From the NCBI GenBank assembly GCA_944322895.1, contig CALUQL010000001.1:7195-71194 (forward strand): a stretch of 64,000 bases of DNA. Reading direction: 5' to 3'. This stretch comes from Candidatus Gastranaerophilales bacterium. Its GTDB lineage: Bacteria; Cyanobacteriota; Vampirovibrionia; Gastranaerophilales; Gastranaerophilaceae. The first letter of the stretch is position 1. Every line of letters starts with the position of its first letter. The notes beneath the pieces were generated by a model, which saw only the letters and a program-made list of their open reading frames with translations, made no database searches and was not told the origin of the DNA. This document shows, piece after piece, positions 5,953 through 44,199 of the stretch. Both the position numbers and the translations under genes were made by a program.

Positions 5953-6927
5953 CTATACTAGGTTTTTCCTCAACCAATTAGCTACATGTGTAGAGATATT
6001 GGACGAAAAACATAGATTAGGTTGCTCTTGAAAAAACATTAATACTTCTTTTAGATTATCAGAAATTGCCTTTTCGTAATTTTCATTCATCCAGAAAAAC
6101 TCAACGTTTATTTCTACTTTTTCACATTTTAACTTATTACAACGTTTTATAAATTCTTTTGCTTCTTTTATATTGTCATTTATACCTGGAATTATTATAT
6201 ATTTTATTGTTACTTCAGCATTTGGATTTTTTCTTGAAGCATCAATATACTTTTTTAAGTTTTTCCAAACCGCATCATAGCCTTTCACTCTCTTGATTTG
6301 TTCATAAACCTTTTTTGTGCCAGCATCAACAGAAACTTTTAATTTTGTTTTACCGTATTTTAATGCTTGTGTAATATCATTCGAGTATGTTATACCTGCA
6401 CTTAAAAATTCAATCGAGCCCTTTTGTGAAAAAGCAAAGTCAATAAGCCATTTTAGTTCACCTTTTGGATACTCTGCACATTCACCACCACCGATAATAA
6501 AATGACAACCGGATTTAAACATATTTTTATCTTTTAACTGCGTTAATAAGGGTCTTACATCATATGTCTTACGTGTATTTAAGTCTTTTTTTATTTCAGC
6601 CTTACCACCACCAGAAATAATACAATATATACAATCACAACTACATTTTGTTCGATTAGAAACAGAAACATCAATAAATCCCGGAGTTTCATCCCACTCT
6701 TTTTCTGTTAAAGTAGGACAATCTTTACACACTTCAGGATAATTTCCTAATTTACATTGCTCTATATAATTCTTACGATTTTCTATATATTCATCAACAT
6801 CAATCAATTCACCATGATAACTTTCTTTAAATGTAAGCTTCTTGTCAAAAGATGCGCAACAATAAGTCAAATCATCTGAATTAATCACTAGGTGATACAA
6901 AGCCCACTCACAACACTTAAATTTCAT
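5953..6927 (-). CDS. Radical SAM enzyme, clade A1
   Basis: Triad CSCDCIYC. N-terminal Cys module MKFKCC..YCC..CKDC. Also GGGECAEYPKGEL, VSVDAGTKKVYEQIKRV and KYIIIPGINDN. Confidence 0.85.
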   Translation of the reverse strand: MKFKCCEWALYHLVINSDDLTYCCASFDKKLTFKESYHGELIDVDEYIENRKNYIEQCKLGNYPEVCKDCPTLTEKEWDETPGFIDVSVSNRTKCSCDCIYCIISGGGKAEIKKDLNTRKTYDVRPLLTQLKDKNMFKSGCHFIIGGGECAEYPKGELKWLIDFAFSQKGSIEFLSAGITYSNDITQALKYGKTKLKVSVDAGTKKVYEQIKRVKGYDAVWKNLKKYIDASRKNPNAEVTIKYIIIPGINDNIKEAKEFIKRCNKLKCEKVEINVEFFWMNENYEKAISDNLKEVLMFFQEQPNLCFSSNISTHVANWLRKNLV

Positions 6928-7179
6928 CTATAATTACTCTCCAAGATAAATTTTAACATATTATAAATTATTGGTCACATGTCAAATTAAATATTAGATA
7001 TGATTTGCACATTATAATCTTGATAATATTTGAAATTTTGAAGAATTTGAATCCAAAGTCGAATAAAAAATTATAGCACAATCCAACCAAGAATATTTTT
7101 TATTCAGTTCCATAGTATACTTTAGCTTTACTTTAAAAATGTAGTATTATATAATTATTTTGGAACCTATGGGTAGATT

Positions 7180-8211
7180 ATGAATTATAAGAGTTGTGGC
7201 TTTATAAATCACGGAATGGAATTCAGACCGGATAAAGAAATAACTGTGTGCTCTCAAGTTAGTCACATTGGTGGTGGGAACATAGTATTATTAAAAGATT
7301 TCAACCCTAAGGCATTTGATATTGAAACTCTTATTAAGAAAAAGAAGGAAATTGCTGATTGTGTAAAAAATGGGGCTATTTATCCTAATTGCATAGGATG
7401 CACAGACTTAAAAGACTGGAACGAATTACGCGAATTATCAAAAATAAAATTATTGATGATTCAACACTGGACTAAATGTAATTCGAATTGCATATATTGT
7501 TATACTGCAAAAAATAAAAAATATTACAATTCACTAAAACCATATGAAATATCTCCAATACTAAAAAAAATGCTCGAATATAATGTTTTAGATAAAGATG
7601 GAATTGCAAATTTTTCGGGCGGAGAATTTACTTGCTTAAAAGAAGCAAATAAAATTATTGATATATTATCTAAATTAAACTACTTTATTATTGTTAATAG
7701 TTCTGGTGTAGTATATTCTAAAAAGCTGGCTGAAAGACTGACAAAAGGTAATTCTTGCGTCGTAATATCAGTTGATGCAGGTTCAGAGGCTACTCATAAA
7801 CTAGTAAAACAAGTTAAAACTTATAAAAGAGTATGGACAAATATACAAAAATATATAAAAAAACAGTCAAAAGATGATTTGGTAAATGTAAAATATATAA
7901 TTATTCCAGGATATAATGATAGCGAAGAAGAAATAGACATTTTTATAGAAAATTGCATAAATGCAGGAGTTAAAAGTATTGTTCTTGGCATAGATGCAAA
8001 TTATTTTGAACCAAATAGAGAAAATATTTCTGACCATATTTTTAAATTGTTTCATTCTACACGAGAAAAGGTCGAAAAACTAAATATTAAATTTACCATT
8101 GCTAATAGAGCTTTAACTATGTTAACTATTGGGAAATATGCTGATCCTTTTTGGGAAAAATATAGATATGATGATGGCGTATACGCTGATAGATACTTTA
8201 ATAACCTTTAA
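7180..8211 (+). CDS. Radical SAM enzyme, clade A2
   Basis: Triad CNSNCIYC. N-terminal Cys residues (KSC..VC..CIGC). Also FSGGEFTCLKE, ISVDAGSEATHKLVKQV and KYIIIPGYNDSEEE. Confidence 0.85.
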   Translation: MNYKSCGFINHGMEFRPDKEITVCSQVSHIGGGNIVLLKDFNPKAFDIETLIKKKKEIADCVKNGAIYPNCIGCTDLKDWNELRELSKIKLLMIQHWTKCNSNCIYCYTAKNKKYYNSLKPYEISPILKKMLEYNVLDKDGIANFSGGEFTCLKEANKIIDILSKLNYFIIVNSSGVVYSKKLAERLTKGNSCVVISVDAGSEATHKLVKQVKTYKRVWTNIQKYIKKQSKDDLVNVKYIIIPGYNDSEEEIDIFIENCINAGVKSIVLGIDANYFEPNRENISDHIFKLFHSTREKVEKLNIKFTIANRALTMLTIGKYADPFWEKYRYDDGVYADRYFNNL

Positions 8212-8348: not shown

Positions 8349-9362
8349 ATGAGAGCTTGCAATAATTTAAATACTTCGATTTGTTTTAACTATAAAGAGA
8401 TTGGTGTTACCTATTGCACTCTTACAAATGCATCAAACGGCAAGGGATGGCCGAAAATATCAGATGATGTATTTGATGGTGAAAAAATTAATTGGAATAA
8501 GTTTTTTGAAGAACGATCTAAAGAAATATATGCAATTAAAAATTGTTGTGAAAGAGTAGAATGTAAAAACTGCCAACAGATTTGCGATATAGATTTTTCT
8601 GACGATAAAAAAATACATTATATTCTATTGTCCCCCTGGCAAATATGCAATTCTAATTGTATATATTGTCTTGGACACGCGGAAATGATTTCAACAAAGA
8701 CACCGAACTATGAGAAATACTACAAAGAATATGAAGAACCATATGATATGCTATCTATTATAAAAGATATGATTGCTAATAATGTATTAGCAGAGGATGC
8801 AGAGATTGATTTTGCAGGTGGCGAACCCACATTATATCCTAAATTCGACGAAATAATAAATTTCTTTATAGATAATGGTTTTAAAAACATCATTATACAC
8901 ACAAACAATATTCAATACTCAAAAGCAATAGAACGAGGAATAAAAGAAAATGCAATAAGTCTTATGATATCAATCGATGCAGGAACTAAAAAATGCCACG
9001 AAAAAACAAAAGGAGTCAGATCATTTGACAAAGTTTGGCACAATTTTAAAAAATATTCAAAAAAAAGGAATAAAACATACTCTAAACGCCTTTGCACTAA
9101 ATACGTTCTTGTGCCCAATGTAAATGATTCAAAGAAAGAATTAGAAGAATTTATTAAACAATCTAAAAAAAATGGAGCAACTCAAGTAGCATTAAACGTT
9201 TATAACCAACTTCTAAATGAAATGAATTATGAAGACAGTTTATTAAATAATTTAAAAGAGCTTTCTGATTTTTGGATTTCTAAAGCAAAAGAAAATGGTC
9301 TACCTTATATTCTTTTTCCTAATATCGAATATGTATACAAAAAACTAAACCAAAAAACTTAG
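8349..9362 (+). CDS. Radical SAM enzyme, clade A2
   Basis: Triad CNSNCIYC. Also FAGGEPTLYPK, ISIDAGTKKCHEKTKGV and KYVLVPNVNDSKKE. Cys-rich N-terminus (C..C..C..CC..CKNC..C). Confidence 0.85.
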   Translation: MRACNNLNTSICFNYKEIGVTYCTLTNASNGKGWPKISDDVFDGEKINWNKFFEERSKEIYAIKNCCERVECKNCQQICDIDFSDDKKIHYILLSPWQICNSNCIYCLGHAEMISTKTPNYEKYYKEYEEPYDMLSIIKDMIANNVLAEDAEIDFAGGEPTLYPKFDEIINFFIDNGFKNIIIHTNNIQYSKAIERGIKENAISLMISIDAGTKKCHEKTKGVRSFDKVWHNFKKYSKKRNKTYSKRLCTKYVLVPNVNDSKKELEEFIKQSKKNGATQVALNVYNQLLNEMNYEDSLLNNLKELSDFWISKAKENGLPYILFPNIEYVYKKLNQKT

Positions 9363-9365
9363 TAA

Positions 9366-10460
9366 TTATTTATATGTATCATGAGAAAATATTTTAATAT
9401 TGTCTTTTGTTTGTTCTATTTTCATTTTTAATTTTTTACGAGCAAAATATCTAAGTTTATTATTGAAATATTGTTTTATAGTAACAGGTTCTAATTTTCG
9501 AAGATAGTCTGGCAACCAACAGTGCGGAGAATTGAATATAGGATTTTTCATCATTTTTACAAAATCATTATATTTATGATGATTTTGATAAAATACAGCA
9601 TAATCTTCTCTATTCATAATATAATCAGCATACCCGCCAATACAAGCGGAAAATGCAGCACGAGCATCAAGTTTTTCTGCTAATTTAACAAAAGCAGGCA
9701 TATCTCTATAATTATCAGCTGTTATTACAAACATAATTTCAAAATCATTAATTTTACCACTTCTTTTTAGTTCACTTATGTATTTGACATTTTTCATTAC
9801 AACATCAAACTTATCAGTTCTAAATATTCTTTTGTATGTTCTTCTAGTTGCTGCATGAAGTGAAATATGCACTTTAAAAAGTCTATCAAGTAAATTATGT
9901 TTTATTAAATTTTCCTCATTACATTTTATACCATTTGAAATAAAATCTACCTTTATATTTGGATTATTATTCAGAATAGCAGCGACCATTTTTTGAGTAT
10001 GTTTACTATCAAAGAACTCACCTCGGCAATTTACAAACATATATTTAGCTTTTGATGTAATAGGTAAAATATGTGTTTCTAATTTATCCTCCCATCTTTT
10101 ACACTCTTCTGGAGGTAAAGCTTTATATTCATCGCGACAAATAATGCATCGTTGTGCACAAGTATAATCATAACCAATATTTATATACTCTGGATATGGA
10201 GCAATTACTCCTTCAAAGAGAATTTTCTCAGACTTAATACCATTACAATTGTCATAGTTACAATATGAATATTTCTTAGCTAGAACATCTTTTCTGAATT
10301 CTTGAGCTTTCACTCCATTCCATATTTCATCAATATCATCTTCAAAAATATTTCCTATCATATTGAAATTAGAGAAACAAGGATTACAAAAAAAACATTT
10401 TCCATCATTATTCAATTCAAGACAATTCCAAGGATTCTGACAAAACAAATTATTATTCAT
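9366..10460 (-). CDS. Radical SAM enzyme, clade B (N-terminal SPASM-like module)
   Basis: N-terminus FCQNPWNCLELNNDGKCFFCNP..GNIFEDDIDEIWNG..YCNYDNC, then triad CAQRCIIC. Also HISLHAATRRTYKRI and a C-terminal CWLPDYLRKLEP. Confidence 0.85.
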   Translation of the reverse strand: MNNNLFCQNPWNCLELNNDGKCFFCNPCFSNFNMIGNIFEDDIDEIWNGVKAQEFRKDVLAKKYSYCNYDNCNGIKSEKILFEGVIAPYPEYINIGYDYTCAQRCIICRDEYKALPPEECKRWEDKLETHILPITSKAKYMFVNCRGEFFDSKHTQKMVAAILNNNPNIKVDFISNGIKCNEENLIKHNLLDRLFKVHISLHAATRRTYKRIFRTDKFDVVMKNVKYISELKRSGKINDFEIMFVITADNYRDMPAFVKLAEKLDARAAFSACIGGYADYIMNREDYAVFYQNHHKYNDFVKMMKNPIFNSPHCWLPDYLRKLEPVTIKQYFNNKLRYFARKKLKMKIEQTKDNIKIFSHDTYK

Positions 10461-10516: not shown

Positions 10517-11500
10517 TTAGCTTCTTATAATATAATTCATAACCTCATCTGGTTCATCAAAATACAATTGATTCTTTTTGCTCAAATCAAAGAATAGATT
10601 AATTAGTTTCTTGTAATTTTGAGGAAGTTCTACTTTTTTCTCAAATAATTCAATAGCATATCTATGTTCTATATGTAGAGAAACTCGTTTTATGCCAATA
10701 TTTACCATTGTTTCTATGAATTTTGTAATTTCTTCTTCTGTATCGTTCATCCCTTTTAAGATAATAAATTTGACATTGATTTCAGGATTATCCTGTTTTG
10801 ATTCTTTTACATATCTTTTTAAGTTTTTTATAACATCATTATATTTGTCAACTTTTTTGATTTTTTTATAAGTTTCACGAGATCCTGAATCTAAGGCCAT
10901 ATTTAAAGAAGCAATTCTATTCTTTAAACATTTACTTATTATTGGCTGATAAATAATATTGTTAGTTGAAAAGTCTATTTTTGATACACCTTCTTTTAAA
11001 AATAATTTTACTAATGGTTCAAACTCCTTTAGAACAGATAGATCTCCACCATGAAACACAATTCTCAAATTATTACGGTTCAAAAGGTTATTTTTATATA
11101 GTCCCTTTATTATTGGTAGAGCGTCGTAGTATTCACTACGCACTTTCCCCTTCGTGATCTTACCTTTCGAATATGTTAGCCTGTCACAATAGAAACATCC
11201 GCAATTACATTGCGTCCAGTTATTTAAATATATAAGTTCAAATTGCTCTGAAAACTTATCATTTTCTCCCTTTTCTTTTTTATATATACAGTTTATACAA
11301 GGGATATTATCATAATTGCCATTTTCTAAGTCAGAAAAGAATTTTTTCTTTTTTTTCTTCAATAACTCAAAATTAAACTCTTTTATATTTCCATTATAAT
11401 TTTCAAAATACACAGGTCCAATATTTCCTAAAACACAACACGATCTTATTGTATCAGGGAAGAAAGTTAAGACGTTATTTAGTTCTGAACAATAATTCAT
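10517..11500 (-). CDS. Radical SAM enzyme, clade A3
   Basis: Triad CNCGCFYC. N-terminus MNYCSELNNVL..SCC..GP.Y..CINC. GGDLSVLKEFE replaces GGEP. Also LDSGSRETYKKIKKV and KFIILKGMNDTEEE. Confidence 0.85.
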   Translation of the reverse strand: MNYCSELNNVLTFFPDTIRSCCVLGNIGPVYFENYNGNIKEFNFELLKKKKKKFFSDLENGNYDNIPCINCIYKKEKGENDKFSEQFELIYLNNWTQCNCGCFYCDRLTYSKGKITKGKVRSEYYDALPIIKGLYKNNLLNRNNLRIVFHGGDLSVLKEFEPLVKLFLKEGVSKIDFSTNNIIYQPIISKCLKNRIASLNMALDSGSRETYKKIKKVDKYNDVIKNLKRYVKESKQDNPEINVKFIILKGMNDTEEEITKFIETMVNIGIKRVSLHIEHRYAIELFEKKVELPQNYKKLINLFFDLSKKNQLYFDEPDEVMNYIIRS

Positions 11501-11740
11501 TTTATTTTATCTGCCTTTTAATATACTTATTAAAACACTATAAACAATTTTATATTATCATGAAAAATAATAGATATTCAGATTTAACCATTTTACAAAT
11601 TTTATAATTAATATCTAAAACTAAAAAAGAATAAAAAGGTACTATATTTTTTATAAAACAAATAATTCCTACGTCCAATTCGTTTGTTTAATAATTAACT
11701 AAAATGAAGTTTATTGAACAAATAAAGAATATAGAATAAT

Positions 11741-12184
11741 CTAAATTGGTTTTAAGATTTTTAATTTATTAATTATTAAGCCTGTGATTTCATCCCAAGC
11801 TTTTTCACTTGGATGACCATCTTTTGGTATTCGATATTCTTGTTTATAAAACATTTCTGGTAGATTTTTCTTAATAATATATCGCTCTTTTCAATATATT
11901 TGACAGTTCATAATCTGATGTTAATTCTTTTTTATCTATAACCGTATGCATATGAACATCCCAATATAATAATTACAGGAGAAGTATATTGCAATCCAAC
12001 AGGATTTCTTTTTTCATAAATTCCGCAACTTTTCTTTCAAATGTATACGGATGATTATCCGATGAAAATTGATTATTCTCTACTGAAGAGTATAAATATT
12101 TATAAACAAAATAATTAAGAGACAATAAAGTAACTATGATTAATATAATATTTATAAGAACTATTATTATATATTTTTTCTCAT
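11741..12184 (-). pseudogene. Decayed copy of the membrane-anchored SGNH-like family
   Basis: On the minus strand, ATG AGA AAA AAT ATA TAA stops after 5 codons. In shifted frames I read a TM segment (KKYIIIIVLINIILIIVTLLSL), then SPVIIILGCSYAYGY, IDKKELTSDYELSNILKRAIY and a C-terminal DGHPSEKAWDEITGLIINKL. These match the intact paralogues, e.g. ILIFGCSFAHGS and DKAHPSEKAWDLL. At least 4 frame changes are needed, 3 of them at A-runs. About half the gene (the middle) is missing. Confidence 0.7.
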
Positions 12185-12232
12185 ATTAATTACTCTTTAT
12201 GTTAAACTATATATTAAATAAGGATATTTAAA

Positions 12233-13165
12233 ATGCAAATTAAAAATATTTTGATTAAATATATAGTATTAATTTTCTTTTCTGTTCTTATACTTATTCT
12301 ATTAAATTATGCCATATATCTTTTTTTGTGTTTCAAGTATAAGTTGAATTTTCAAGAGTTTTGCCCTTTTTACAGAACTAATTTTTCAGTAAGAACGTTT
12401 GTAAAAAAAGAAAAATTTGATCATTATAATACGAAAAATAATAAAGATAAAAGCATTATAATTTTTGGCTGTTCATTCGCAAAAGGACTTGGACTCAATG
12501 AAAATGAAAATTTTGCTGCACTGTTGGCTGATTACACCAAAAGACCTGTTTATAACAGAGCTGTGAATGGTGGTGGTGTTCAATACGCTCAAATGCAGGT
12601 TGAAAGCAATTATATTGATGACATAATAAAAAATACAGATACTGTTATATATGTATTATCATCATTAAAAGATTCTGCCAGATTAAAAGTATATCCTGGA
12701 AAGGTATTCCAACCTTGTTGGATTTTAAACTCATCTATATATCCAAGATATATTTTAAAAGATGACAAGTTATACTTTTATAGATCTCCAATACCTTTCA
12801 TAGAAGGATCTATATTATATCGAATGATAGAAAAGGTCTTAAAGGATAGAGGAAATTCTCGCGAAATAAAAGAAAATGAAATAAACGATTTGTATATAGC
12901 ATTATCTTATTTGGATAAAAGTCTAAAGACTATTAATCCAAAAGTCAAACTATATGTACTACTTTATCACGGTTCTATAAATGAAATAGTTGAGGTCACT
13001 TCAGGTAAAAACCCTTTTGACAACAGTGATATAAAACTTGTACCAATTTCTTCATTTATAGATATAAATTTAAATGATACTAAATATAGAGCAGAAAATT
13101 CTCACCCTACATCAACTGCTTGGAAAGTTATAGTACCGGAATTTGCAAAGAAATTTAATCTATGA
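12233..13165 (+). CDS. Membrane-anchored SGNH/GDSL-like hydrolase or acyltransferase (paralogue)
   Basis: N-terminal TM helix, IIIFGCSFAKGLGL, YNRAVNGGGVQY and C-terminal ENSHPTSTAW. The stop overlaps the next start (ATGA). Confidence 0.55.
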   Translation: MQIKNILIKYIVLIFFSVLILILLNYAIYLFLCFKYKLNFQEFCPFYRTNFSVRTFVKKEKFDHYNTKNNKDKSIIIFGCSFAKGLGLNENENFAALLADYTKRPVYNRAVNGGGVQYAQMQVESNYIDDIIKNTDTVIYVLSSLKDSARLKVYPGKVFQPCWILNSSIYPRYILKDDKLYFYRSPIPFIEGSILYRMIEKVLKDRGNSREIKENEINDLYIALSYLDKSLKTINPKVKLYVLLYHGSINEIVEVTSGKNPFDNSDIKLVPISSFIDINLNDTKYRAENSHPTSTAWKVIVPEFAKKFNL

Positions 13166-18168: not shown

Positions 18169-18471
18169 TTATATATTCTTTTGTAATTCCTGTTGTATTC
18201 TCTTGTATCTATTTACAGTTGGATTAATATGAATTGCTTTTTCTATATCAGATAGAGCCCCATTATAATCATTCAAACTTCTTTTAACTTCACTTCGTGA
18301 CGCATAAAACATGTCATTTGTTGATTCCAGTTCAATTGCATTATTAAATTTAGTTAACGCTTTTTTGAATTGCCCTTTTAACCTTAGTACTTCACCTTCA
18401 ATCGCATATGAAGCTGAATTATTATTTTGATTTTTTTTAAAGTATTTTTCTATAAAATTCATAGAACTCAA
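18169..18471 (-). CDS. Small TPR-repeat protein (paralogue of 22750-23046)
   Basis: 100 aa with two TPR-like units (EGEVLRLKGQFKKALTKFNNAIELESTND and MFYASRSEVKRSLNDYNGALSDIEKAIHINPT). It is a single-gene minus-strand unit between plus-strand operons. Confidence 0.55.
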   Translation of the reverse strand: MSSMNFIEKYFKKNQNNNSASYAIEGEVLRLKGQFKKALTKFNNAIELESTNDMFYASRSEVKRSLNDYNGALSDIEKAIHINPTVNRYKRIQQELQKNI

Positions 18472-37693: not shown

Positions 37694-38651
37694 TGAGTCC
37701 TTTTATTTCTCTATATTGAGTTGCAACACCATAAAACTGAATATCTATTCCTCTTTGTTTTGTGGAATCAATGATATATTGATATATTTCATCTACTTTG
37801 CCAGGGATATTATGTTTATTGCGCTCAAACCAATCCGCTTCAAAGTCCATTATAACTTGCTGTATTCCAATTTTTTCTGTTTCATCAAGCCATTTATCAA
37901 TATCTTCTTTTGAATCATTAATATTAGGTATAACTATATATTTTGAACGGACCATTTTTTTGTTACAACCTTGTGCTTTAACATACTTTTTTAATGTATC
38001 TACGACTTTGTTATATGCATCAACTTGTTTAATCTGTTTAAACTTTTCTCTATCACCGCAATCAACACTAACAGTAACAGACATAGTATCAGTTTTCAAA
38101 CCTTTTAATACAGATCTAACAGGTTTTATAGCATTAGTATGAACCATTATAAGTTTTTCGCCTTTTTTTATAAAGAAATTTGTAATATCATCAAACTCTC
38201 TTAAACTTGCAGGTTCACCACCAGAATATGCCAATTCTCCATTATAATCAATCATACCCATTTTATCTAATTCTTTGATTATTGGCATAATTTTATAGCG
38301 TTTCTTTGGCTTTACAAAATCACTTTGAAGCCTATAACAATATGAACAATTACAATTACACTCAGACCAATGCGCAATTTGTATCCATTTAAATTTTTGA
38401 TTATCATCCCAGTCTTGTTCTTGTAATCCAAAGCACCCAACACAATGTGAATCAGTTATACCATTTTTCTGATTTGCTCTAATTATTTTAATTTTTTCAA
38501 TTAGCTCATTCCAATCTAATTTTTCACCATAATAATCTTTTTTTAGAAATAAAGGTTCCGGTGTATTAGATCCCATAAAACAGCATAACTTAATACTATT
38601 ATACTCAAACCTAAGTCCATTTTGGATATTAGAGCAGCTTATATACTTCAA
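37662..38651 (-). CDS. Radical SAM enzyme, clade A2
   Basis: Triad CNCNCSYC. Also YSGGEPASLRE, VSVDCGDREKFKQIKQV and KYIVIPNINDSKED. N-terminal Cys residues SC..LCC..CVGC. Confidence 0.85.
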   Translation of the reverse strand: MKYISCSNIQNGLRFEYNSIKLCCFMGSNTPEPLFLKKDYYGEKLDWNELIEKIKIIRANQKNGITDSHCVGCFGLQEQDWDDNQKFKWIQIAHWSECNCNCSYCYRLQSDFVKPKKRYKIMPIIKELDKMGMIDYNGELAYSGGEPASLREFDDITNFFIKKGEKLIMVHTNAIKPVRSVLKGLKTDTMSVTVSVDCGDREKFKQIKQVDAYNKVVDTLKKYVKAQGCNKKMVRSKYIVIPNINDSKEDIDKWLDETEKIGIQQVIMDFEADWFERNKHNIPGKVDEIYQYIIDSTKQRGIDIQFYGVATQYREIKGLNVDGYGLHQE

Positions 38652-38764: not shown

Positions 38765-39730
38765 ATGAAAAGACGTGATTTTATATGTGGACTTTCTTGT
38801 TTATTAGCAGGTTTTTGCCTTGGTAATTTTGTAGATTTAAAAAATAAAAAAAATAAAATTAATTATAATAAGCAAAAGGAAAGAGGTATTGAATTATGTA
38901 GTATAGGAATTGCCATATCATCCCATTGTAATCTAAATTGTAAAGGCTGTGATGTATATGCACCACTTGCAAAAAAAGAATTTGTTACTTATGAACAATT
39001 TGTAAAAGATATGAACAAATTAAAAAAAATTGCTCCAGATCGAGAATATAACACTTTTTTTATAGGAGGTGAACCTTTATTAAATCCAGAACTTACTAAA
39101 ATAATTAACAAAACCAAAGAATTATTTCCAAACGCACAAAAATCAATCCTTACAAATGGCATTTTGATAGAGAAAATGGAAGAAAACTTTTTCAAAGCAA
39201 TTAAGGAATCAAATGTTTCTTTTGGAATTACTAAATACCCAATCAATATTAATTTTGAAAATATAGAAAGAATTCTGCAGAAATATGGTATTGAAATACT
39301 TTATGATCCTGTAAAATCAGACAAAATTTATGATGTAAATACAAAGCAAGCGTTATATAATAATCCTGACAATAGAAATGGCTTTGTATGGAGCCAAAAC
39401 ATATTGGATTTATCAGGAAATCAGAATTGGGTAGAGAAACGTTTTACATGTCCACATCGAGGAATTGTGACTTATGCCAGAGGCAATATTTACTATTGTT
39501 ATATTCATGCATATATAAATGCTTTTATTAACTATTTTAAGGTAAATATCCCTATTACAAAAGATGACTATATAAAAATTGCAGATGTAAAAAGCATAGA
39601 AGAAATCGATGACTTTTTATCAAAACCAAAACCATTGTGTAGATTTTGCAAGCAATGTCACAATACTTGTTATGGTGATGAACCTATAGAATGGAATTTT
39701 TCTGAAAGAAAAATAACAGAATGGACATAA
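38765..39730 (+). CDS. Radical SAM enzyme with Tat-signal-like N-terminus and C-terminal Cys-rich (twitch/SPASM-like) region
   Basis: AGGAG lies upstream. N-terminus MKRRDFICGLSCLLAGFCLG. Triad CNLNCKGC at about residue 55. Also FIGGEPLLNPE and a C-terminal C..C..C..CRFCKQCHNTC. The architecture differs from clades A and B. Confidence 0.8.
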   Translation: MKRRDFICGLSCLLAGFCLGNFVDLKNKKNKINYNKQKERGIELCSIGIAISSHCNLNCKGCDVYAPLAKKEFVTYEQFVKDMNKLKKIAPDREYNTFFIGGEPLLNPELTKIINKTKELFPNAQKSILTNGILIEKMEENFFKAIKESNVSFGITKYPININFENIERILQKYGIEILYDPVKSDKIYDVNTKQALYNNPDNRNGFVWSQNILDLSGNQNWVEKRFTCPHRGIVTYARGNIYYCYIHAYINAFINYFKVNIPITKDDYIKIADVKSIEEIDDFLSKPKPLCRFCKQCHNTCYGDEPIEWNFSERKITEWT

Positions 39731-39761: not shown

Positions 39762-40787
39762 TTGTATATGAGTAAATTTTGTAAACATCCGTTCCATACA
39801 ATACAAATACAAAATACAGGAGATGTATATTGTTGCTGTTGTTATTGGACAAATTTTTATTCTTTCGGGAATATTTTTGAAAAGTCCTTTGATGAAATCT
39901 GGAATGGAGAAAAAGCAAAAGAATTTAGAAAACAATTTATCGAAAATAATTACAAATACTGCAATTTAGAAGTTTGTGATCCTTTTTTACATGAATTCGA
40001 ACCTGATTATACAGCAGATTATCCAAAGAAAGTAGAATTTAGTTATGATAGAAGATGTAATGTACGCTGCATTTTTTGTAGAAATGAAAAAAATAAAGAA
40101 GAAGAAGAATACAACAGACAAAAAGAAAAAAGAATAGAAGAAAATTTTGACAAAATTTTTACTCCAATTATTCAGAAAGCAGAGGTAGTTGAACTAAATT
40201 CAGCCGGAGAGTTATTTGCAAGTAAACATTCTATTGAAATTGTAAAAAAAATTATAAAAATTAATCTAAATATAGAATTCAACATAATTTCGAATGGAAT
40301 TTTATTTACAAAAGAAAATATAGACGCAATTGGTTTAGATAAGCATCTTAACACCGTTATAATTTCAATGCACGCAACAACGGAAAAAACATATAATAAA
40401 CTTGTTGAAAATGGCAATTTTAAAGCCTTAATGAAAAATGTAAAATATCTCTCAGAACTGAAAAAAGAAGGTTCTATAAGAAATCTACAATTAAATTTTG
40501 TTGTAACAGCAATTAATTATAAAGAAATGAAAGATTTTGTAAGACTAGCAAGAGAACTAGACGCAAAAGCATTTTTCATAAACTATCATAGACAAATTGA
40601 TTCTGACGAACTTATGAACAGATTAGATATTTCACTTACATCGCATCCACAATACAATAAATTAGTAAAAATGTTAAAAAATCCAATATTCAAGGAAGAA
40701 TGCTGTGTTCTTAATGATTATCTGAAAGAATTAAAACCAAACAAAAAAAAGTTAACAAATATATTAAAAGACTTATTTAAAAAATGA
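39762..40787 (+). CDS. Radical SAM enzyme, clade B (N-terminal SPASM-like module)
   Basis: N-terminus FCKHPFHTIQIQNTGDVYCCCC..GNIFEKSFDEIWNGEKAKEFRKQF..YCNLEVC. Triad CNVRCIFC. Also ISMHATTEKTYNKL and a C-terminal CCVLNDYLKELKP. Confidence 0.85.
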   Translation: MYMSKFCKHPFHTIQIQNTGDVYCCCCYWTNFYSFGNIFEKSFDEIWNGEKAKEFRKQFIENNYKYCNLEVCDPFLHEFEPDYTADYPKKVEFSYDRRCNVRCIFCRNEKNKEEEEYNRQKEKRIEENFDKIFTPIIQKAEVVELNSAGELFASKHSIEIVKKIIKINLNIEFNIISNGILFTKENIDAIGLDKHLNTVIISMHATTEKTYNKLVENGNFKALMKNVKYLSELKKEGSIRNLQLNFVVTAINYKEMKDFVRLARELDAKAFFINYHRQIDSDELMNRLDISLTSHPQYNKLVKMLKNPIFKEECCVLNDYLKELKPNKKKLTNILKDLFKK

Positions 40788-41765
40788 ACCTTTATCCAAT
40801 ATTTCTTTTATATACTCCCAAATATGAGGTTCAATATTATTTTCTTTGCAATAATTTTTATAAAAATCGAACAAATCATAATAATATTTAGGAATTATAA
40901 ATTCTCCGTTTTGTAGGAATTCGTTGTCACATTGATCTATCATCAACTCAGAAGTCTTAATTCCTATAACCTTCATTAAATCAATGTATTTTCTAAGTTC
41001 TTCGATATTATCATTTACACCTCTAACCAAAATATACTTTAATCTAAGAAGTATAGGCAGTTTAGAATATTTTTTCAAATTTTCAACAACATCATCAAAT
41101 TTATCAACTATTTTAATTTTTTTAAATGTTTCTCTGCTTCCTGAATCTATCGAAATATTTATATCAACAAAAGTCTTATCACATATTTCTTCGACAATTG
41201 GTAAATACATAATTCCATTTGTAGCTATTTCAATACGCTTAACACCATTCTTAATAAAAATATCAACTAAATTTTCAAATTCATCAAGAACAGACACATT
41301 ACCGCCCTGAAAATGAACATCAAGTTCTTGTTTATCTATCAAATCCTTCTTATAAAGTTCTTTTATAATTGGAAGTAAATCATAATAATCACTCTTTTTA
41401 GGTTTTAATACAATTTTCCTATTAGATAGATATTGTTCACAACAATAAATACAACTGCAATCACATTGTTTAAAATGTTTTACAATTATCAAATTTGTCT
41501 TTGGCGGTTTAGCTAATTGACTAAAAATAAGAGGCTTTGGATTCTTCTGTTCTTTTAAATCAAAACAACCTTCACACTCTGTTGGAATAATACCTTTATC
41601 TAACATTTTGATTAAAGAATTTCTTTTCTTTAATACTTCTTTAACTTTTTCTGGAGAAGGTATATCACAAGAAGGACCAGTTCTTGTAGCACAACAATAG
41701 AATACTTTCAGTGCATCAAAGTTTAAAGTTTCATTTAATCTTTTACAATAATATCTTTTTTTCAT
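40773..41765 (-). CDS. Radical SAM enzyme, clade A3
   Basis: Triad CDCSCIYC. N-terminus YYCKRLNETL..YCC..GP..CEGC. Also FQGGNVSVLDEFE, ISIDSGSRETFKKIKIV and KYILVRGVNDNIEE. A 15-nt convergent overlap with 39762-40787. Confidence 0.85.
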   Translation of the reverse strand: MKKRYYCKRLNETLNFDALKVFYCCATRTGPSCDIPSPEKVKEVLKKRNSLIKMLDKGIIPTECEGCFDLKEQKNPKPLIFSQLAKPPKTNLIIVKHFKQCDCSCIYCCEQYLSNRKIVLKPKKSDYYDLLPIIKELYKKDLIDKQELDVHFQGGNVSVLDEFENLVDIFIKNGVKRIEIATNGIMYLPIVEEICDKTFVDINISIDSGSRETFKKIKIVDKFDDVVENLKKYSKLPILLRLKYILVRGVNDNIEELRKYIDLMKVIGIKTSELMIDQCDNEFLQNGEFIIPKYYYDLFDFYKNYCKENNIEPHIWEYIKEILDKGSFFK

Positions 41766-41820: not shown

Positions 41821-42816
41821 ATGAATTTTTTTGATGTATTTAAAAATAAAAAATCATACATGTGCCCGTTATTAAATAATCATTTGCATTTTTCGTGTAG
41901 AAATGCATTAGAACCTTGTTGCAGTGCTAATATTGGACCTGCTTTTGTAAAAGAACTCTCCAAAAAAGATTCCATAAAAAACTTTGTTGAAACAAAAAAG
42001 AAATACATTAAATTATTAAAGGATGGTAAAATTCCAGAAGAATGCAAGAATTGTGTTCATATAACTACATACAAAAAAACAAACGATTTTCGCATTAATA
42101 AAATAACACTAAATCACTATACACAATGTAATTGTGCTTGTATATATTGCACTCAAGGTAATAGAACAATAGAAAAAATAAAAGAGGATGCAAATAAACC
42201 TGTTTTATTTGATGTTCTTAAATTTATAAATGAATTATATGATAATGATCTAGTTGATAGAGAAAAGCTTTATATTGATTTTCAAGGTGGGAATATTTCT
42301 TGTCTAAAGAATCACGAAGAAATAATAAATACATTTCTCAATCGCGGAGTAGGAACAATCTATATTCCGACAAACAATATTGTTTATATGCCAATTATTG
42401 AAGAATTATTAAAATGTAAAAAAGGAGAACTCTGTACTGCACTTGACTCCGGTTGCAGAGAAACATATTTAAAAATAAAACAAGTAGATAAATTTGATAA
42501 ATCTGTTGAAAATATAAAAAGATATATAGCTTCAGCCGGTAATGATTCAATAATAATAAAATATATAATAGTAAATGGCTATAATGACAATATTGAAGAA
42601 TTTAAAATGTTTATGAATAAAATGATTGAATTAAATGTTAAAATCATAGTATTAGACATTGACTATCGAGACATTATTGATGGGGCATTCAAAATTCCAA
42701 AAAACTACTATGACATTTTAAACTATGCAAAAGAAACCTGCAAAATTAATAATATTGATTTAGGAATTCCTCCCTATACTAAACAAGTCTTTGACAGAGG
42801 ATATTCTTGCAAATAA
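41821..42816 (+). CDS. Radical SAM enzyme, clade A3
   Basis: Triad CNCACIYC. N-terminus MCPLLNNHL..PCC..GPAF..CKNC. Also FQGGNISCLKNHE, LDSGCRETYLKIKQV and KYIIVNGYNDNIEE. Confidence 0.85.
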   Translation: MNFFDVFKNKKSYMCPLLNNHLHFSCRNALEPCCSANIGPAFVKELSKKDSIKNFVETKKKYIKLLKDGKIPEECKNCVHITTYKKTNDFRINKITLNHYTQCNCACIYCTQGNRTIEKIKEDANKPVLFDVLKFINELYDNDLVDREKLYIDFQGGNISCLKNHEEIINTFLNRGVGTIYIPTNNIVYMPIIEELLKCKKGELCTALDSGCRETYLKIKQVDKFDKSVENIKRYIASAGNDSIIIKYIIVNGYNDNIEEFKMFMNKMIELNVKIIVLDIDYRDIIDGAFKIPKNYYDILNYAKETCKINNIDLGIPPYTKQVFDRGYSCK

Positions 42817-44199
42817 TTACCACAACTTAAACAAATGATAATTTATCATTGCCTTTAATATATATCTAGTTTGAGAAACAGGAATATCATTTAGTAAATT
42901 CCATAAACGTTTGGGTCTAAAATAAAATTTCCAGTATACTTTTTGTATTGTCCTTAAAATATCTTCTTCCGTCAAATTATCAGGAAGCCAATCAGGCTTT
43001 GATATAAATGAATGTTCATAATTTAGTTGATACTTTTCTTTTAATTTTTTTGATAAATCAGAACCTGGAAGAAGTCTCAAAGCAAAGAATCCTGCTCTAT
43101 CAAGCTTACTATTTACAGCATAATTAATTGTTTTTTGAATTGTTTCTCTTGTTTCACCGGGAAGACCAAATATGAAATTTCCTTGAGTAATCATGCCTGC
43201 TTCATGAGCAAGATTTATTGCAAAATCAATTTGTTCAATTGTCTCACCTTTCCTAATATTTTTCAGAATTTGATTATCAGCAGACTCAATACCAAAATCT
43301 ATTAGGTAGCAACCTGATTTTTTCATCAAAGCCAAAACTTCTTTATCAACCTTATCAGCTCTAACACCATTTGGTGTAGACCAAGGTACTTTGATATTAT
43401 TTTCTATCAGTGCATTACAAAGTTCAATAATATAATCTCTTTTCAATGTTAAATTATCATCAGTAAATTGAAGTTCTTTTATTCCCAAATGTTCTATTTG
43501 ATATTTAACTTCTTCGATAACATTTGAAACAGAACGTTGTCTTATACCTTTGTAGAAATTATTTGAAGAACAAAAAGTACATCTGCTTGGACAACCTCTT
43601 GAAGTCATAATAATACCAATTGGATTTCCTCGAGCTATAACAGCGTGAGGGGAATGTGGATATGTAATTGGAGGCAATTGTTCCCAATCAGGCATTGGTA
43701 TTGTATCTAAATCCATTACAGTTTCGGCTTTAAGAATTGGTTCACCATTAATTTGCGTTTCGTCATCTTTTAATGATTCTAAATCATAAACTCCTTGTAT
43801 ATTTTTATGATTAAGGTTATTTTCACATATTCGTTTTAAAGGAATTTCACCTTCACCGCAAACTACAAAATCAGCTCGACTATCCTTTAAAGTAGTATAA
43901 GGAAGAAAAGTTGGATGAACTCCACCTATATTTACTTTAAAACCTTCTTTCTTCAATGCTCTTGATATATCAACAGTTTGTTTATAGAATGCAGTTAAAC
44001 AGTGTATTCCAATTAAATCAGGATTATATTCTTTTGCCATTTTAACAACATCATTAACACTTAAATTGTCTCTCAAGGCATCAATAATTTTGGTTTCTAC
44101 ATTGCAATATTTTTTTATATATGAAGATAAATACAAAACCCCTAAAGGCGGTGCCATAACATAAGTATCGAAATTAGGAACAATAAATAATATCTTCAA
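42817..44199 (-). CDS. B12-binding-domain radical SAM enzyme (class B rSAM, methyltransferase-like)
   Basis: 460 aa. N-terminal Rossmann-like B12-binding-type region (MKILFIVPNF..PPLGVLYLSSY..DLIGIHCLT), then TSRGCPSRCTFCSS. The architecture is typical of the B12-binding/rSAM family. Confidence 0.75.
   Translation of the reverse strand: MKILFIVPNFDTYVMAPPLGVLYLSSYIKKYCNVETKIIDALRDNLSVNDVVKMAKEYNPDLIGIHCLTAFYKQTVDISRALKKEGFKVNIGGVHPTFLPYTTLKDSRADFVVCGEGEIPLKRICENNLNHKNIQGVYDLESLKDDETQINGEPILKAETVMDLDTIPMPDWEQLPPITYPHSPHAVIARGNPIGIIMTSRGCPSRCTFCSSNNFYKGIRQRSVSNVIEEVKYQIEHLGIKELQFTDDNLTLKRDYIIELCNALIENNIKVPWSTPNGVRADKVDKEVLALMKKSGCYLIDFGIESADNQILKNIRKGETIEQIDFAINLAHEAGMITQGNFIFGLPGETRETIQKTINYAVNSKLDRAGFFALRLLPGSDLSKKLKEKYQLNYEHSFISKPDWLPDNLTEEDILRTIQKVYWKFYFRPKRLWNLLNDIPVSQTRYILKAMINYHLFKLW

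Follow-up and report, generated by a model that had tools for sequence, protein, structure and literature searches.

Loci in which radical-SAM (rSAM) genes lie amid sugar genes occur in other bacteria. On plasmid pBHWA1 of Brachyspira hyodysenteriae, seven rSAM genes are interspersed with Gmd, rfb and glycosyltransferase genes (PMC4267127). In Paracoccus, a protein with the architecture of one of the families described below (Family B) is encoded beside genes for a GT25 enzyme, a second glycosyltransferase and a nucleotide-sugar dehydrogenase. Both loci are analogous to the array reported here.

The window (the whole stretch of 64,000 nucleotides that was analysed) comes from a gut metagenome-assembled genome of the Gastranaerophilales (Melainabacteria), an uncultured, non-photosynthetic relative of the cyanobacteria. 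A scan for open reading frames and motifs found exactly 24 ORFs of 321–477 aa between 5,953 and 44,199, each with one CxxxCxxC motif, which with a 460-aa B12-type member make 25 rSAM genes. This is the count given in a preliminary description of the DNA, and the motifs it quoted (CSCDCIYC, CNSNCIYC twice, CAQRCIIC, CNCGCFYC, CNLKCCIC and CNVKCIFC) are found at the genes to which it assigned them. The ORF lengths sum to 26,058 of 38,247 nt, or 68% of the span, in agreement with its estimate of about 26.0 kb in 38.2 kb, or two-thirds. All 25 proteins match PF04055 at E ≤ 0.01 in a Pfam profile search, and its claim that they belong to the rSAM superfamily therefore stands.

The same description proposed a single architecture with roughly half of residues identical within a clade, and here it needs correction. 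The array consists of 17 members of Family A, six of Family B (9366–10460, 16086–17120, 19653–20741, 33660–34667, 35682–36725 and 39762–40787), one unrelated, SPASM-like rSAM singleton and one class B (B12-binding) enzyme. Families A and B belong to one superfamily with an N-terminal twitch domain. Identity among paralogues within a family is 23–48%, and values of 39–48% are confined to the subclade 5953/18596/20752/21777. As for the proposed flanking genes, GT9, DegT and GT2 are confirmed by Pfam, but gmd sits inside the array, and the proposed cupin (44287–44718) has no Pfam match and only weak PDB matches, to the CooA β-barrel and vicilin. The features are as follows, with the evidence in brackets.

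3781–4770, minus: GT9 (heptosyltransferase-family) glycosyltransferase, left flank (PF01075, 79 bits)
5953–6927, minus: Family A rSAM, 324 aa, in a subclade with 18596/20752/21777 (CSCDCIYC at aa 95; PF04055, 42 bits; Family A HMM); orthologues in loci L011 and L017 are 76–80% identical
7180–8211, plus: Family A rSAM, 343 aa (motif, PF04055, Family A HMM)
8349–9362, plus: Family A rSAM, 337 aa (motif, Family A HMM); orthologues are 67–87% identical across many loci and often adjoin Gmd
9366–10460, minus: Family B rSAM, 364 aa, with N-terminal SPASM/twitch (PF13186 match)
10517–11500, minus: Family A rSAM, 327 aa (motif, Family A HMM)
11741–11854, minus: 37-aa remnant of an SGNH-like paralogue, in a 732-nt gap (comparison of the C-terminal GHPSEKAW motif)
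12233–13165, plus: TM-anchored SGNH-like protein, paralogue 1, 310 aa (paralogy; F-G-C, Y-N and H-P..W motifs)
13162–14091, plus: TM-anchored SGNH-like protein, paralogue 2, 309 aa (paralogy); three of five assemblies have a truncated form of 255 aa
14098–16065, plus: 10-TM membrane protein with C-terminal TPR, 655 aa, “MEM” (TM scan; TPR Pfam matches)
16086–17120, plus: Family B rSAM, 344 aa (motif, Pfam)
17122–18153, plus: TM-anchored SGNH-like protein, paralogue 3, 343 aa (paralogy; weak NF047474 match)
18169–18462, minus: small TPR protein, 97 aa, paralogue of 22750–23046
18596–19561, plus: Family A rSAM, 321 aa (motif, Family A HMM)
19653–20741, plus: Family B rSAM, 362 aa (motif, family comparison)
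20752–21777, plus: Family A rSAM, 341 aa (motif, Family A HMM)
21777–22742, plus: Family A rSAM, 321 aa (motif, Family A HMM); its start overlaps the stop of the preceding gene by 1 nt
22750–23046, minus: small TPR protein, 98 aa
23218–24243, plus: Family A rSAM, 341 aa (motif, Family A HMM)
24262–25245, minus: ApbA/PanE-like NAD(P)H ketoreductase, 327 aa (PF02558 and PF08546)
25249–26235, minus: Family A rSAM, 328 aa, partner of the ApbA-like reductase (motif, Family A HMM)
26370–27389, plus: GDP-mannose 4,6-dehydratase (Gmd), inside the array (PF16363, 379 bits)
27441–28430, minus: Family A rSAM, 329 aa, core (orthologues 72–91% identical; dN/dS 0.04–0.08)
28439–29440, minus: Family A rSAM, 333 aa, core (orthologues 75–94% identical; dN/dS 0.04–0.05)
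29514–31079, plus: 10-TM membrane protein, 521 aa, MEM family (TM scan; iterated HMM)
31100–32533, plus: Family A rSAM, 477 aa, core, with a C-terminal extension of about 140 aa (orthologues of 452–516 aa, 60–91% identical; dN/dS 0.07–0.09)
32543–33589, minus: Family A rSAM, 348 aa, core, the member modelled with AF2 (pLDDT 88.7)
33660–34667, plus: Family B rSAM, 335 aa, core (fused to TM and SGNH-like parts in three species)
34699–35682, plus: Family A rSAM, 327 aa, the most conserved member (orthologues 83–97% identical; dN/dS 0.01–0.02)
35682–36725, plus: Family B rSAM, 347 aa, core; its start overlaps the stop of 34699–35682
36722–37693, minus: TM-anchored SGNH-like protein, paralogue 4, 323 aa (paralogy); overlaps the upstream gene 37662–38651 by 32 nt
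37662–38651, minus: Family A rSAM, 329 aa, core (orthologue conservation, dN/dS)
38765–39730, plus: singleton rSAM, 321 aa, in neither family (motif at aa 55, Cys-rich tail)
39762–40787, plus: Family B rSAM, 341 aa, core (orthologue conservation, dN/dS)
40773–41765, minus: Family A rSAM, 330 aa, core (orthologue conservation, dN/dS)
41821–42816, plus: Family A rSAM, 331 aa, core (orthologue conservation, dN/dS)
42817–44199, minus: class B (B12-binding) rSAM, 460 aa, with CPSRCTFC (PF02310 and PF04055)
44287–44718, plus: 143-aa protein, the putative cupin of the preliminary description
44711–45835, plus: DegT/DnrJ/EryC1-family sugar aminotransferase (PF01041, 334 bits)
45824–46525, minus: GT2 polyprenyl-phosphate sugar synthase (DPMS/GtrB/ArnC-like), 233 aa (PF00535; PDB 5mlz)
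49294–51354: restriction-modification gene, 5 kb from the array

An hhalign comparison matches Family A to Family B over the whole length, N-terminal Cys domain included (probability 97.5%, E = 7e-12). The Cys residues of this domain are invariant or almost so, and the two families are homologous throughout. The four-Cys twitch/SPASM-like domain has been moved ahead of the rSAM barrel, and is a circular permutation of the usual C-terminal one. In the AF2 model of the Family A member 32543–33589, an N-terminal β-hairpin-plus-helix module precedes the barrel. The N_Twi_rSAM model aligns across the full length of 9366–10460, at 30 bits against a cut-off of 170 bits. The singleton, which has its CxxxCxxC at residue 55 followed by a Cys-rich C-terminal tail, starts with a conserved, Tat-like MKRRDF(I/L)CG sequence.

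The array recurs in at least five independent assemblies and in 26 GTDB species. The exact protein encoded by 5953–6927 is present on 11 contigs of independent ENA and Logan assemblies, and it has the same neighbours at the six places compared. DNA repeats in the region do not exceed about 79% identity over 40–230 nt, and all fall within conserved coding motifs. Orthologues of the core paralogues are 65–97% identical in about 20 species, compared to 23–48% for paralogues, and dN/dS of orthologue pairs is 0.01–0.12. The core paralogues are thus individually conserved, non-redundant genes under strong purifying selection. An assembly artefact or a recent duplication was considered, and is ruled out by the independent assemblies, the repeat search and the comparison of orthologue with paralogue identities. 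About 11 rSAM genes make up a syntenic core, whose order is kept in the species mapped. The suggestion of an old, maintained expansion is therefore upheld.

The locus is a chromosomal radical-SAM island that is conserved throughout the order Gastranaerophilales, and 23 of its enzymes form one old, lineage-expanded superfamily, divided into Families A and B. A Family A profile search gave 1,329 clusters at E ≤ 1e-30. Related 21-kb loci contain 6–19 Family A and B genes each; orthologues of 32543–33589 were found in 26 GTDB species, and the singleton in just four of 26 loci. Gaps within the core are at most 113 nt and hold no small ORF, and there is no RRE, protease or exporter, which speaks against a RiPP system.

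The co-evolving parts of the island are the SGNH-like ecto-proteins, the 10-TM family, the ApbA-like reductase, Gmd, DegT and the DPMS-like GT2. The SGNH-like proteins share F-G-C, Y-N and H-P..W motifs, in which the conserved residue is Cys and not the canonical Ser. Profile searches gave no Pfam or PDB sequence match for them, apart from a weak match of 17122–18153 to NF047474 (GDSL/SGNH esterase family, E = 9e-4); they are assigned as SGNH-like by motif only. Their N-terminal charge pattern predicts an N-in, C-out topology, with the domain facing outwards. They are linked to Family B: the stop of 16086–17120 lies 1 nt before the start of 17122–18153, and orthologues of 33660–34667 are fused to a TM segment and an SGNH-like domain in three species (L016 6449–8377, L017 8002–9933 and L029 427–2370; also protein P0152).

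The membrane proteins 14098–16065 and 29514–31079 belong to the same MEM family, as found with an iterated HMM. The family has no Pfam or PDB sequence match apart from the TPR part of 14098–16065; TPR modules recur in 18169–18462 and 22750–23046. An invariant Asp39 is found in the first loop following TM1 of 29514–31079. The AF2 model of this protein is poor (pLDDT 57) and Foldseek gave nothing significant (E-values exceed 0.1), with the top TM-scores to the GT-C enzymes AftA, STT3 and ArnT; an hhalign comparison of the family with E. coli ArnT was negative. The MEM family is possibly GT-C. The ApbA-like gene lies 3 nt downstream of Family A 25249–26235, and an ApbA–Family A fusion (P0308) has an rSAM half 51% identical to it; the fusion is orthologous to this paralogue. 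Tandem A–A fusions of the 5953/18596/20752/21777 subclade also exist (P0241).

None of the array rSAMs reaches a curated NCBIfam cut-off. The best PDB sequence matches are generic rSAM cores (E about 1e-7), with no close solved homologue, and Foldseek with the 32543–33589 model likewise returned generic cores: BlsE, SkfB, SuiB, PFL-AE and DesII. The sugar-acting BlsE is top and DesII ranks 13th and 15th. Among the structural and sequence neighbours of the rSAM core, similar scores are also reached by SkfB and SuiB, which mature peptides, and by the lipid enzyme GDGT-MAS. Literature searches found no characterised pathway needing this many rSAM enzymes, as had been supposed.

We suggest, tentatively and at somewhat less than even confidence, that the island encodes a multi-step radical pathway for tailoring an envelope glycoconjugate, the functional links being guilt by association. 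The suggestion is made because of Gmd, DegT, the DPMS-like GT2, the membrane and ecto-enzyme partners and the analogous Brachyspira and Paracoccus sugar loci. A Gmd orthologue adjoins the rSAM core in the gene maps of L009, L010, L021 and L025, and is also present in L008, L012 and L030. The GT2 matches dolichol-P-mannose synthase over residues 1–229 (PDB 5mlz, E = 4e-28), and more weakly GtrB and ArnC. DegT and the polyprenyl-phosphate sugar synthase lie at the array edge both here and in L009, where the genes run B12-rSAM, DegT, MEM, SGNH-like, GT2. There are only two classical glycosyltransferases near the array, and Wzx, Wzy, an ABC exporter and an initiating transferase were not seen in the window. 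L011 is essentially all rSAM, and unrelated housekeeping genes come after the core in L023, L026 and L031, so that sugar genes need not adjoin it. The glycan or envelope role proposed earlier thus retains its genomic associations, but these are circumstantial, with the core lying among housekeeping genes in some species. To our knowledge, a series of more than 20 radical steps, one after another, on a single scaffold the size of a sugar is without precedent, and this counts against a glycoconjugate product.

Other readings were weighed. The rSAMs could be a toolbox for cross-linking, epimerising or otherwise modifying one or more ribosomal peptides, or exported or surface proteins, whose genes lie elsewhere, with TPR proteins as substrate adaptors, and MEM and SGNH-like proteins processing the protein after export. 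SPASM/twitch domains are typical of such maturases, the nearest curated or solved proteins by score include SkfB, SuiB, CteB, MftC, PqqE, HxsC and a tungsten-enzyme maturase, TPR modules recur, and some species lack obligatory small-molecule pathway genes beside the core. The similarity is however to the generic core and cluster-binding motifs only, at scores far under the family cut-offs; there is no precursor-like small ORF within or adjoining the conserved core, Pfam searches found no RRE/PqqD domain, leader peptidase or ABC exporter, and the ApbA fusion and co-conservation of Gmd point to small-molecule keto or sugar chemistry. We consider protein maturation unlikely, and a lipid product slightly more so. 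On this reading, unactivated carbons of a lipid in the membrane or envelope (lipid A acyl chains, polyprenyl or hopanoid-like lipids, or membrane-spanning lipids) would be functionalised by the rSAMs, a task that falls to O2-dependent enzymes in aerobes. Anaerobes usually rely on rSAMs for C–H chemistry on lipids, the partners are membrane-anchored or polytopic, and a GT9 transferase of the LPS-core type is on the flank. There are weak matches to tetraether synthase Tes/GDGT-MAS, and the class B rSAM is nearest to HpnJ and a “lipid biosynthesis B12-rSAM” family. These matches are far under their cut-offs (Tes at most 38 against 450 bits; HpnJ, the best NCBIfam match, 195 against 577 bits, followed by BchE and then a P-methyltransferase family), the island has no fatty-acid, isoprenoid or lipid A genes, and Gmd, DegT and the GT2 favour sugars.

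An exported, diffusible secondary metabolite or novel cofactor (a nucleoside, aminocyclitol or deazapurine-like compound) made in many radical steps is doubtful in our view. Two structural neighbours (BlsE and DesII) and a weak sequence match (BtrN) belong to antibiotic and aminoglycoside pathways, and Family A proteins are fused to a MATE-type exporter domain (P0314) and to a methyltransferase domain (P0248). Such clusters are usually patchy between species, whereas the island keeps a syntenic, highly conserved core throughout an order whose genomes are small, and no regulator, resistance gene or scaffold-forming enzyme (NRPS, PKS or cyclase) is present in the window. The same conservation, order-wide and with every copy under strong purifying selection, leaves an anti-phage island of viperin-like rSAMs making chain-terminating nucleotides close to refuted, such islands being highly variable. 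Weak pVip matches occur in 17 of 25 proteins (best E = 1e-16), the viperin_w_prok model matches 16 (best E = 1e-13), and a restriction-modification gene is nearby; but the viperin score is about 41 against a curated cut-off of 180 bits, the matches span the generic core only, and viperins lack an N-terminal twitch domain.

If the product is an envelope glycoconjugate, each rSAM would cleave SAM at its CxxxCxxC cluster and abstract hydrogen from an unactivated C–H, and the N-terminal auxiliary cluster would take or return an electron, as it does in BtrN and BlsE, which are twitch enzymes, and in DesII, a related sugar enzyme. The paralogues would work sequentially, each at its own position, on a single cytoplasmic scaffold, by oxidation, epimerisation, deoxygenation or C–C bond formation. 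The scaffold would most likely be GDP-6-deoxyhexose-derived or an amino sugar, or a polyprenyl-phosphate-linked form of these. A keto intermediate from the 25249-type enzyme could be reduced by the ApbA-like reductase, and GT2 would load the product on polyprenyl phosphate for flipping across the membrane. After this it would be attached to an envelope acceptor by the variable MEM proteins, which have 10 TM segments, are possibly GT-C and in some cases carry TPR, and it would be finished by the Cys/His SGNH-like ecto-enzymes. The conserved rSAM core may thus make an unusual building block, while the variable modules (MEM, SGNH-like and additional rSAM) would diversify the site and manner of its display.

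The Family B N-terminus (mostly profile positions 3–67, up to 3–94) aligns with the C-terminal SPASM region, at about aa 234–329, of non-permuted Brachyspira rSAMs. In the Brachyspira rSAMs the SPASM domain is at the C-terminus, whereas in Family B it is N-terminal.

The array between 5,953 and 44,199 had been described in the preliminary description as 24 open reading frames of 321-477 aa, each with one CxxxCxxC triad, plus a 460-aa B12-type member, together covering about two thirds of the span. An ORF listing and motif search reproduced these features: all 25 radical SAM (rSAM) ORFs carry the triad exactly once, and their summed length of 26,058 nt is 68% of the 38,247-nt span, or 26 kb of the 64-kb window. 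Membership of the superfamily is clear, with PF04055 matched by 25/25 proteins at E ≤ 0.01 (best 4e-28). The 460-aa protein (42817-44199, minus strand) matches both PF02310 (B12-binding, 3e-17) and PF04055, and is thus a class B (cobalamin-dependent) rSAM, although in NCBIfam it falls below the cut-off of every named subfamily (HpnJ, 195 vs 577 bits). The suggestion that the paralogues share one architecture did not hold. All-against-all BLAST and clustering divide the genes into four groups:

Family A: 17 members, pairwise identity 23-48%
Family B: 6 members, pairwise identity 29-44%
38765-39730 (+): singleton rSAM, 1 member, unrelated to A or B
42817-44199 (-): class-B (B12) rSAM, 1 member, unrelated to A or B

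The genome as a whole holds 24 rSAMs with an N-terminal twitch domain, including one beside recJ, together with one unrelated singleton and two B12-type rSAMs. The gene beside recJ is an 18th member of Family A (17283-18287 in L001, another assembly of the same locus; 334 aa, with a Family A profile score of 323 bits), which stands outside the island, about 3 kb left of the window start, between a holin-like gene and recJ. Unrelated genes surround the second B12-binding rSAM, a 538-aa protein with CPSSCIYC at aa 276, which is encoded at 59192-60808 (plus strand), 15 kb right of the island. The singleton has a conserved twin-arginine-like N-terminus, MKRRDF(I/L)CG(A/L)S.L(L/I)AGF, and orthologues in three related loci (L007 3855-4820, L010 4746-5711 and L031 5711-6673); a Tat-type signal or anchor would be odd on a SAM-dependent enzyme, because SAM and reductant are cytoplasmic. 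The Family A protein 31100-32533 (+) has a Lys/Glu-rich C-terminal extension of about 140 aa, which is kept in all its orthologues (452-516 aa).

In Families A and B the CxxxCxxC motif is found about 95-117 residues from the N-terminus, with a Cys-rich module ahead of it. In Family A this module has the pattern C...CC...CxxC, with four cysteines invariant or nearly so. In Family B it is recognized by PF13186 (SPASM) in 6/6 members (best 4e-15), a model that no Family A protein matches. The two families align end to end, including the N-terminal module (hhalign probability 97.5%, E = 7e-12). The SPASM/twitch domain occupies residues 1 to about 95, ahead of CxxxCxxC, instead of its usual position C-terminal to the rSAM core. 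Conventional rSAM/SPASM proteins encoded on a Brachyspira plasmid match the Family B profile in two pieces: their N-terminal half corresponds to the core of the profile, and their C-terminal SPASM region to its N-terminal module. It follows from this split that the module is a circularly permuted twitch/SPASM domain. The AlphaFold2 model of the Family A protein 32543-33589 (pLDDT 88.7) has an N-terminal β-hairpin-plus-helix module ahead of a barrel, in which strands alternate with helices after CxxxCxxC, and which matches rSAM barrels in Foldseek. The permuted domain provides a natural experiment in the repositioning of auxiliary-cluster domains.

The same domain order, with a Cys-rich twitch/SPASM-like domain before the rSAM barrel, is found in one curated NCBIfam family, NF033640 (N_Twi_rSAM, twitch domain-containing radical SAM protein). 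Its model is matched by 13/25 array proteins at E ≤ 0.01 (best 8e-17), and one Family B member spans model positions 2-370 of 398. The array proteins nevertheless lie outside NF033640, because they score only 21-52 bits (best per-protein scores 52, 30 and 21) against a curated cut-off of 170. To our knowledge NF033640 is functionally uncharacterized, and we know of no report of tandem arrays of more than 20 of its members. Membership of any other named rSAM family was likewise rejected, all NCBIfam scores being far under cut-off. PDB sequence searches and Foldseek fold searches returned no close solved homologue, only generic rSAM cores (BlsE, SkfB, SuiB, GDGT-MAS, PFL-AE, TYW1, DesII and MoaA; TM-scores around 0.45, E about 1e-7 to 1e-10).

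An array of this kind could be an assembly collapse or a recent duplication. Both were rejected: near-identical DNA repeats are absent (none in the array region exceeds about 79% identity), the locus occurs in independent assemblies, and orthologues are present in 26 species. The protein 5953-6927 has an exact match on 11 contigs from independent assemblies, with identical neighbours at the places shown. Named homologues come from metagenome-assembled genomes of Candidatus Gastranaerophilales or "Cyanobacteria bacterium SIG29", and among GTDB representatives Candidatus Avigastranaerophilus faecigallinarum is the nearest (92% identity). GTDB genomes were scanned with the orthologue alignment of a single paralogue, and loci of up to 21 kb around the 32543-33589 orthologue in the 26 GTDB species contain up to 19 Family A and B genes. 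On a larger scale, the Family A profile finds 1,329 clusters (50% identity) at E ≤ 1e-30 among 1.84 billion representatives.

Every paralogue in the right-hand half of the array has an orthologue in about 20 species that is 65-97% identical, whereas paralogues within the window are only 23-48% identical to each other, and dN/dS for true orthologue pairs is 0.01-0.12. This bears out the earlier proposal of an old, maintained expansion. Gene maps show a syntenic core in the order A41821, A40773, B39762, A37662, B35682, A34699, B33660, A32543, A31100, A28439, A27441 (family letter and start coordinate), often followed by Gmd and A8349. From the identities, dN/dS and synteny we infer that the duplications are older than the radiation of these species, and that each copy has been kept for its own function. 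Such a pattern agrees with a system of several steps or several targets, and disagrees with redundancy or with the rSAMs themselves undergoing antigenic variation. What varies between species around the core is the number of extra rSAM paralogues, of SGNH-like genes (up to four free-standing and one fused in a 21-kb locus) and of MEM genes (up to three per locus), the last two being the membrane-associated families described below.

In the window the SGNH-like family has four members (12233, 13162, 17122 and 36722), all paralogues of about 310-340 aa with a TM anchor. Their motifs F-G-C, Y-N and H-P..W recall SGNH blocks I, III and V, and the conserved positions are a G-C-(S/G/A) block, Gly114, Y-N137 and H324-P325. 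In block I, Cys109 is present in 18/20 sequences and Ser110 in only 10/20, whereas canonical SGNH proteins have Ser (GDS). Pfam and PDB profile searches with the family were empty, and NCBIfam gave a single weak GDSL match (E = 9e-4). The protein 13162-14091 varies at strain level: it has 309 aa in the window and in L003 and L005, and is called as 255 aa, 93% identical, in three further assemblies of this locus (L001, L002 and L004). A 732-nt gap (11501-12232) contains a 37-aa ORF, 11741-11854 (-), ending in "...DGHPSEKAWDEITGLIINKL". This is the SGNH-like C-terminal H-P..W motif, and the ORF is therefore a decayed extra paralogue; it is annotated as a gene in four of the related assemblies too.

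The MEM family, whose members may be GT-C glycosyltransferases, comprises 14098-16065, which also carries TPR repeats, and 29514-31079. A TM scan gives about 10 TM segments in each, and Asp39, directly after TM1, is invariant. Pfam and PDB profile searches were again empty, and an hhalign comparison with E. coli ArnT was negative. A homologue search yielded only 4 sequences, and the AlphaFold2 model has pLDDT 57.5. Foldseek found nothing for it at E < 0.1, the highest TM-scores (0.21-0.27) being to AftA, STT3 and ArnT. Two small paralogues (18169-18462 and 22750-23046, both minus strand; 97-98 aa, 40% mutual identity) contain little beyond TPR repeats. They are wedged among rSAM genes of the opposite strand, and could be adaptors.

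Fusions provide concrete pairings for biochemistry, namely rSAM with TM helix and ecto-enzyme, rSAM with ketoreductase, and rSAM with rSAM. In three rabbit-gut species the B33660 orthologue is joined via a TM helix to an SGNH-like domain, and in the window the stop of B16086 is 1 nt ahead of the SGNH-like gene 17122. In P0308, from a 14-member cluster, an ApbA-type ketoreductase is fused to a Family A domain that shares 51% identity with 25249-26235; in the window it is precisely this paralogue that adjoins the ApbA-like gene 24262-25245. Tandem A-A fusions occur in P0241 and P0001. The wider set of fused Family A relatives (P0241-P0243, P0001, P0246, P0248 and P0314) includes tandem A-A proteins (643-653 aa) as well as longer ones (948-993 aa) in which two rSAM domains are present. 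A Methyltransf_23 domain is added in P0248, and in P0314 Family A is fused to MatE. Read-through in gene calling may account for some of these forms.

Among the sugar genes, Gmd had been counted as a flank gene and in fact sits inside the array, while the cupin assigned to 44287-44718 could not be confirmed. DegT and GT2 are at the right edge and GT9 on the left flank. The GT2 protein (45824-46525) matches PF00535 and, over its full length (residues 1-229), the Pyrococcus DPMS structure 5mlz (E = 4e-28), with weaker matches to GtrB and ArnC, which identifies it as a polyprenyl-phosphate glycosyltransferase. In a related locus (L009) the gene order is B12-rSAM, DegT, MEM, SGNH-like, GT2. Further right is a restriction-modification module (49294-53356, plus strand). 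It begins with a protein of 686 aa that combines HSDR_N, N6_Mtase and Eco57I-type methylase domains; two ORFs without a Pfam assignment, of 470 aa and 196 aa, come next. The single Rfam match in the whole window is a tRNA gene (55292-55364, minus strand; 73 bits), and no riboswitch, including the SAM and cobalamin types, was found before the rSAM genes at the Rfam gathering threshold.

Taken together, the evidence supports a multi-rSAM system that is real, ancient and non-redundant, and whose product arrives at the outer face of the cytoplasmic membrane. We propose tentatively, and at somewhat less than an even chance, that it works by stepwise radical tailoring of a sugar-type building block, which is the most economical mechanism. 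The rSAMs would act on a nucleotide sugar or on a sugar linked to polyprenyl phosphate, with the N-terminal auxiliary cluster serving the redox step in the manner of BtrN. A keto intermediate would pass to the ApbA-like reductase for reduction. Once the product is on a lipid carrier, the MEM and SGNH-like proteins would install or finish it. Against sugar tailoring, the core lies among housekeeping genes in some species, classical polysaccharide export and polymerization genes are absent from the window, and we know of no precedent for a single small scaffold that undergoes more than 20 radical reactions. A bolder version, possible but rather doubtful, is an assembly line of just such length. 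Here the permuted twitch-rSAMs, from two families not classified before, would each carry out a distinct and possibly new C-H functionalization of a single scaffold. The resulting envelope molecule, heavily rearranged, would be a hallmark of gut Melainabacteria. On the far side of the membrane it would be received by Cys/His ecto-enzymes and by membrane transferases with TPR repeats, both belonging to new families.

The array might instead mature proteins or peptides encoded elsewhere, which we regard as unlikely. Neither a precursor ORF nor a protease or exporter was found, and the Pfam matches include no RRE/PqqD domain; gaps within the core are all ≤113 nt and hold no small ORF, and the ORFs in larger gaps are TPR proteins or a gene remnant. 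A RiPP cluster is accordingly disfavoured, and scores against RiPP-type rSAM/SPASM families are low (SkfB 42 vs a cut-off of 300 bits, MftC ≤55 vs 265, PqqE ≤24 vs 381, AlbA 30 vs 850). Tailoring of a lipid is distinctly unlikely, given that every match to a lipid family is far under cut-off. For a secondary metabolite or cofactor the core is too conserved and a scaffold enzyme is absent, leaving this a slim prospect. The least probable reading by far is viperin-like defence: the best array score against prokaryotic viperin (NF038283) is about 41 bits with a curated cut-off of 180, and PADLOC pVip matches are weak (best 1e-16). These scores, together with the order-wide synteny, led us to reject a defence island.

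Several aspects of the locus are already known, namely the superfamily of the enzymes, the permuted architecture (for which NF033640 is a curated precedent) and the existence of multi-rSAM sugar loci in Brachyspira. Families A and B, the scale of the array, its order-wide conservation copy by copy and the co-expanded partner families that lack a Pfam model appear to be undescribed in the literature searched. This search covered radical SAM enzymes in Gastranaerophilales, Melainabacteria or Vampirovibrionia, N-terminal twitch domains and rSAMs in O-antigen loci, and its only relevant item was a paper on the Brachyspira plasmid (PMC4267127). "Impossible" anaerobic chemistry comes mainly from radical SAM enzymes, whose new reaction types tend to be discovered enzyme by enzyme. 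Because about two dozen diverged and individually conserved enzymes, none in a curated family, are collected in one locus, candidate new reactions can be sought here in a dense and clearly bounded set. Strong purifying selection on every core copy across the order implies that the product should be central to the biology of the Gastranaerophilales, which are widespread, uncultured gut relatives of cyanobacteria. Should it be a surface glycoconjugate, the product is also what the immune system of the host encounters.

Three kinds of known system can be compared with the array. At the level of single enzymes, BlsE is the top structural match of the Family A model, with DesII 13th and 15th (Foldseek E 8e-10 to 4e-7), and BlsE and BtrN are also among the PDB sequence matches. 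The substrates of BlsE, DesII and BtrN are sugars, cyclitols or nucleosides, from which a hydrogen is abstracted before oxidation, deamination or decarboxylation, and BtrN has one auxiliary [4Fe-4S] cluster, held in its twitch domain. The likeness is confined to the generic barrel (TM-scores 0.43-0.48, identity 13-16%). In these enzymes the twitch or auxiliary domain is C-terminal, in contrast to the N-terminal position in the window families, and they are encoded by single genes of antibiotic pathways and not by an array.

Arn/Gtr/PMT-type systems, which serve polyprenyl-phosphate sugar modification and combine an aminotransferase, a GT2 and a GT-C enzyme, share with the window a DegT-family aminotransferase (ArnB is a member of the DegT family) and a DPMS/GtrB/ArnC-like GT2. 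The polytopic membrane proteins of the window, some of which bear TPR repeats, have an invariant Asp in their first outer loop, and the aminotransferase, GT2 and membrane genes are contiguous in L009. Sequence similarity of the MEM family to ArnT, or to entries of Pfam or the PDB, could not be detected, however, and the window contains no flippase or formyltransferase. Arn/Gtr/PMT-type systems contain no rSAM enzymes, unlike the window.

Relatives on plasmids were sought by tblastn, and in this search Family A had no match. A Paracoccus plasmid encodes an rSAM with the Family B architecture, whose neighbours are a GT25 gene, a further glycosyltransferase and a nucleotide-sugar dehydrogenase. 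Brachyspira hyodysenteriae, which like the host of the window is an anaerobic gut bacterium of low GC content, has plasmid pBHWA1. The seven rSAM genes of pBHWA1, which include five paralogues in tandem, are located among Gmd, rfbABCD, rfbF and glycosyltransferase genes. As in the window, several paralogous rSAM/SPASM genes are thus found in a sugar locus with GDP-mannose 4,6-dehydratase. The plasmid proteins are homologous to Family B (HMM E 1e-20 to 1e-24), although identity is only about 25%, and they have the core followed by a C-terminal SPASM domain, whereas the window families are circularly permuted. The plasmid is about 36 kb, its rSAM block varies between strains, and some of its genes correlate with virulence (PMC4267127). 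The island described here has 24-25 rSAM genes compared to 7 on pBHWA1 and, in contrast to the plasmid-borne and strain-variable Brachyspira block, is chromosomal, order-wide and syntenic.
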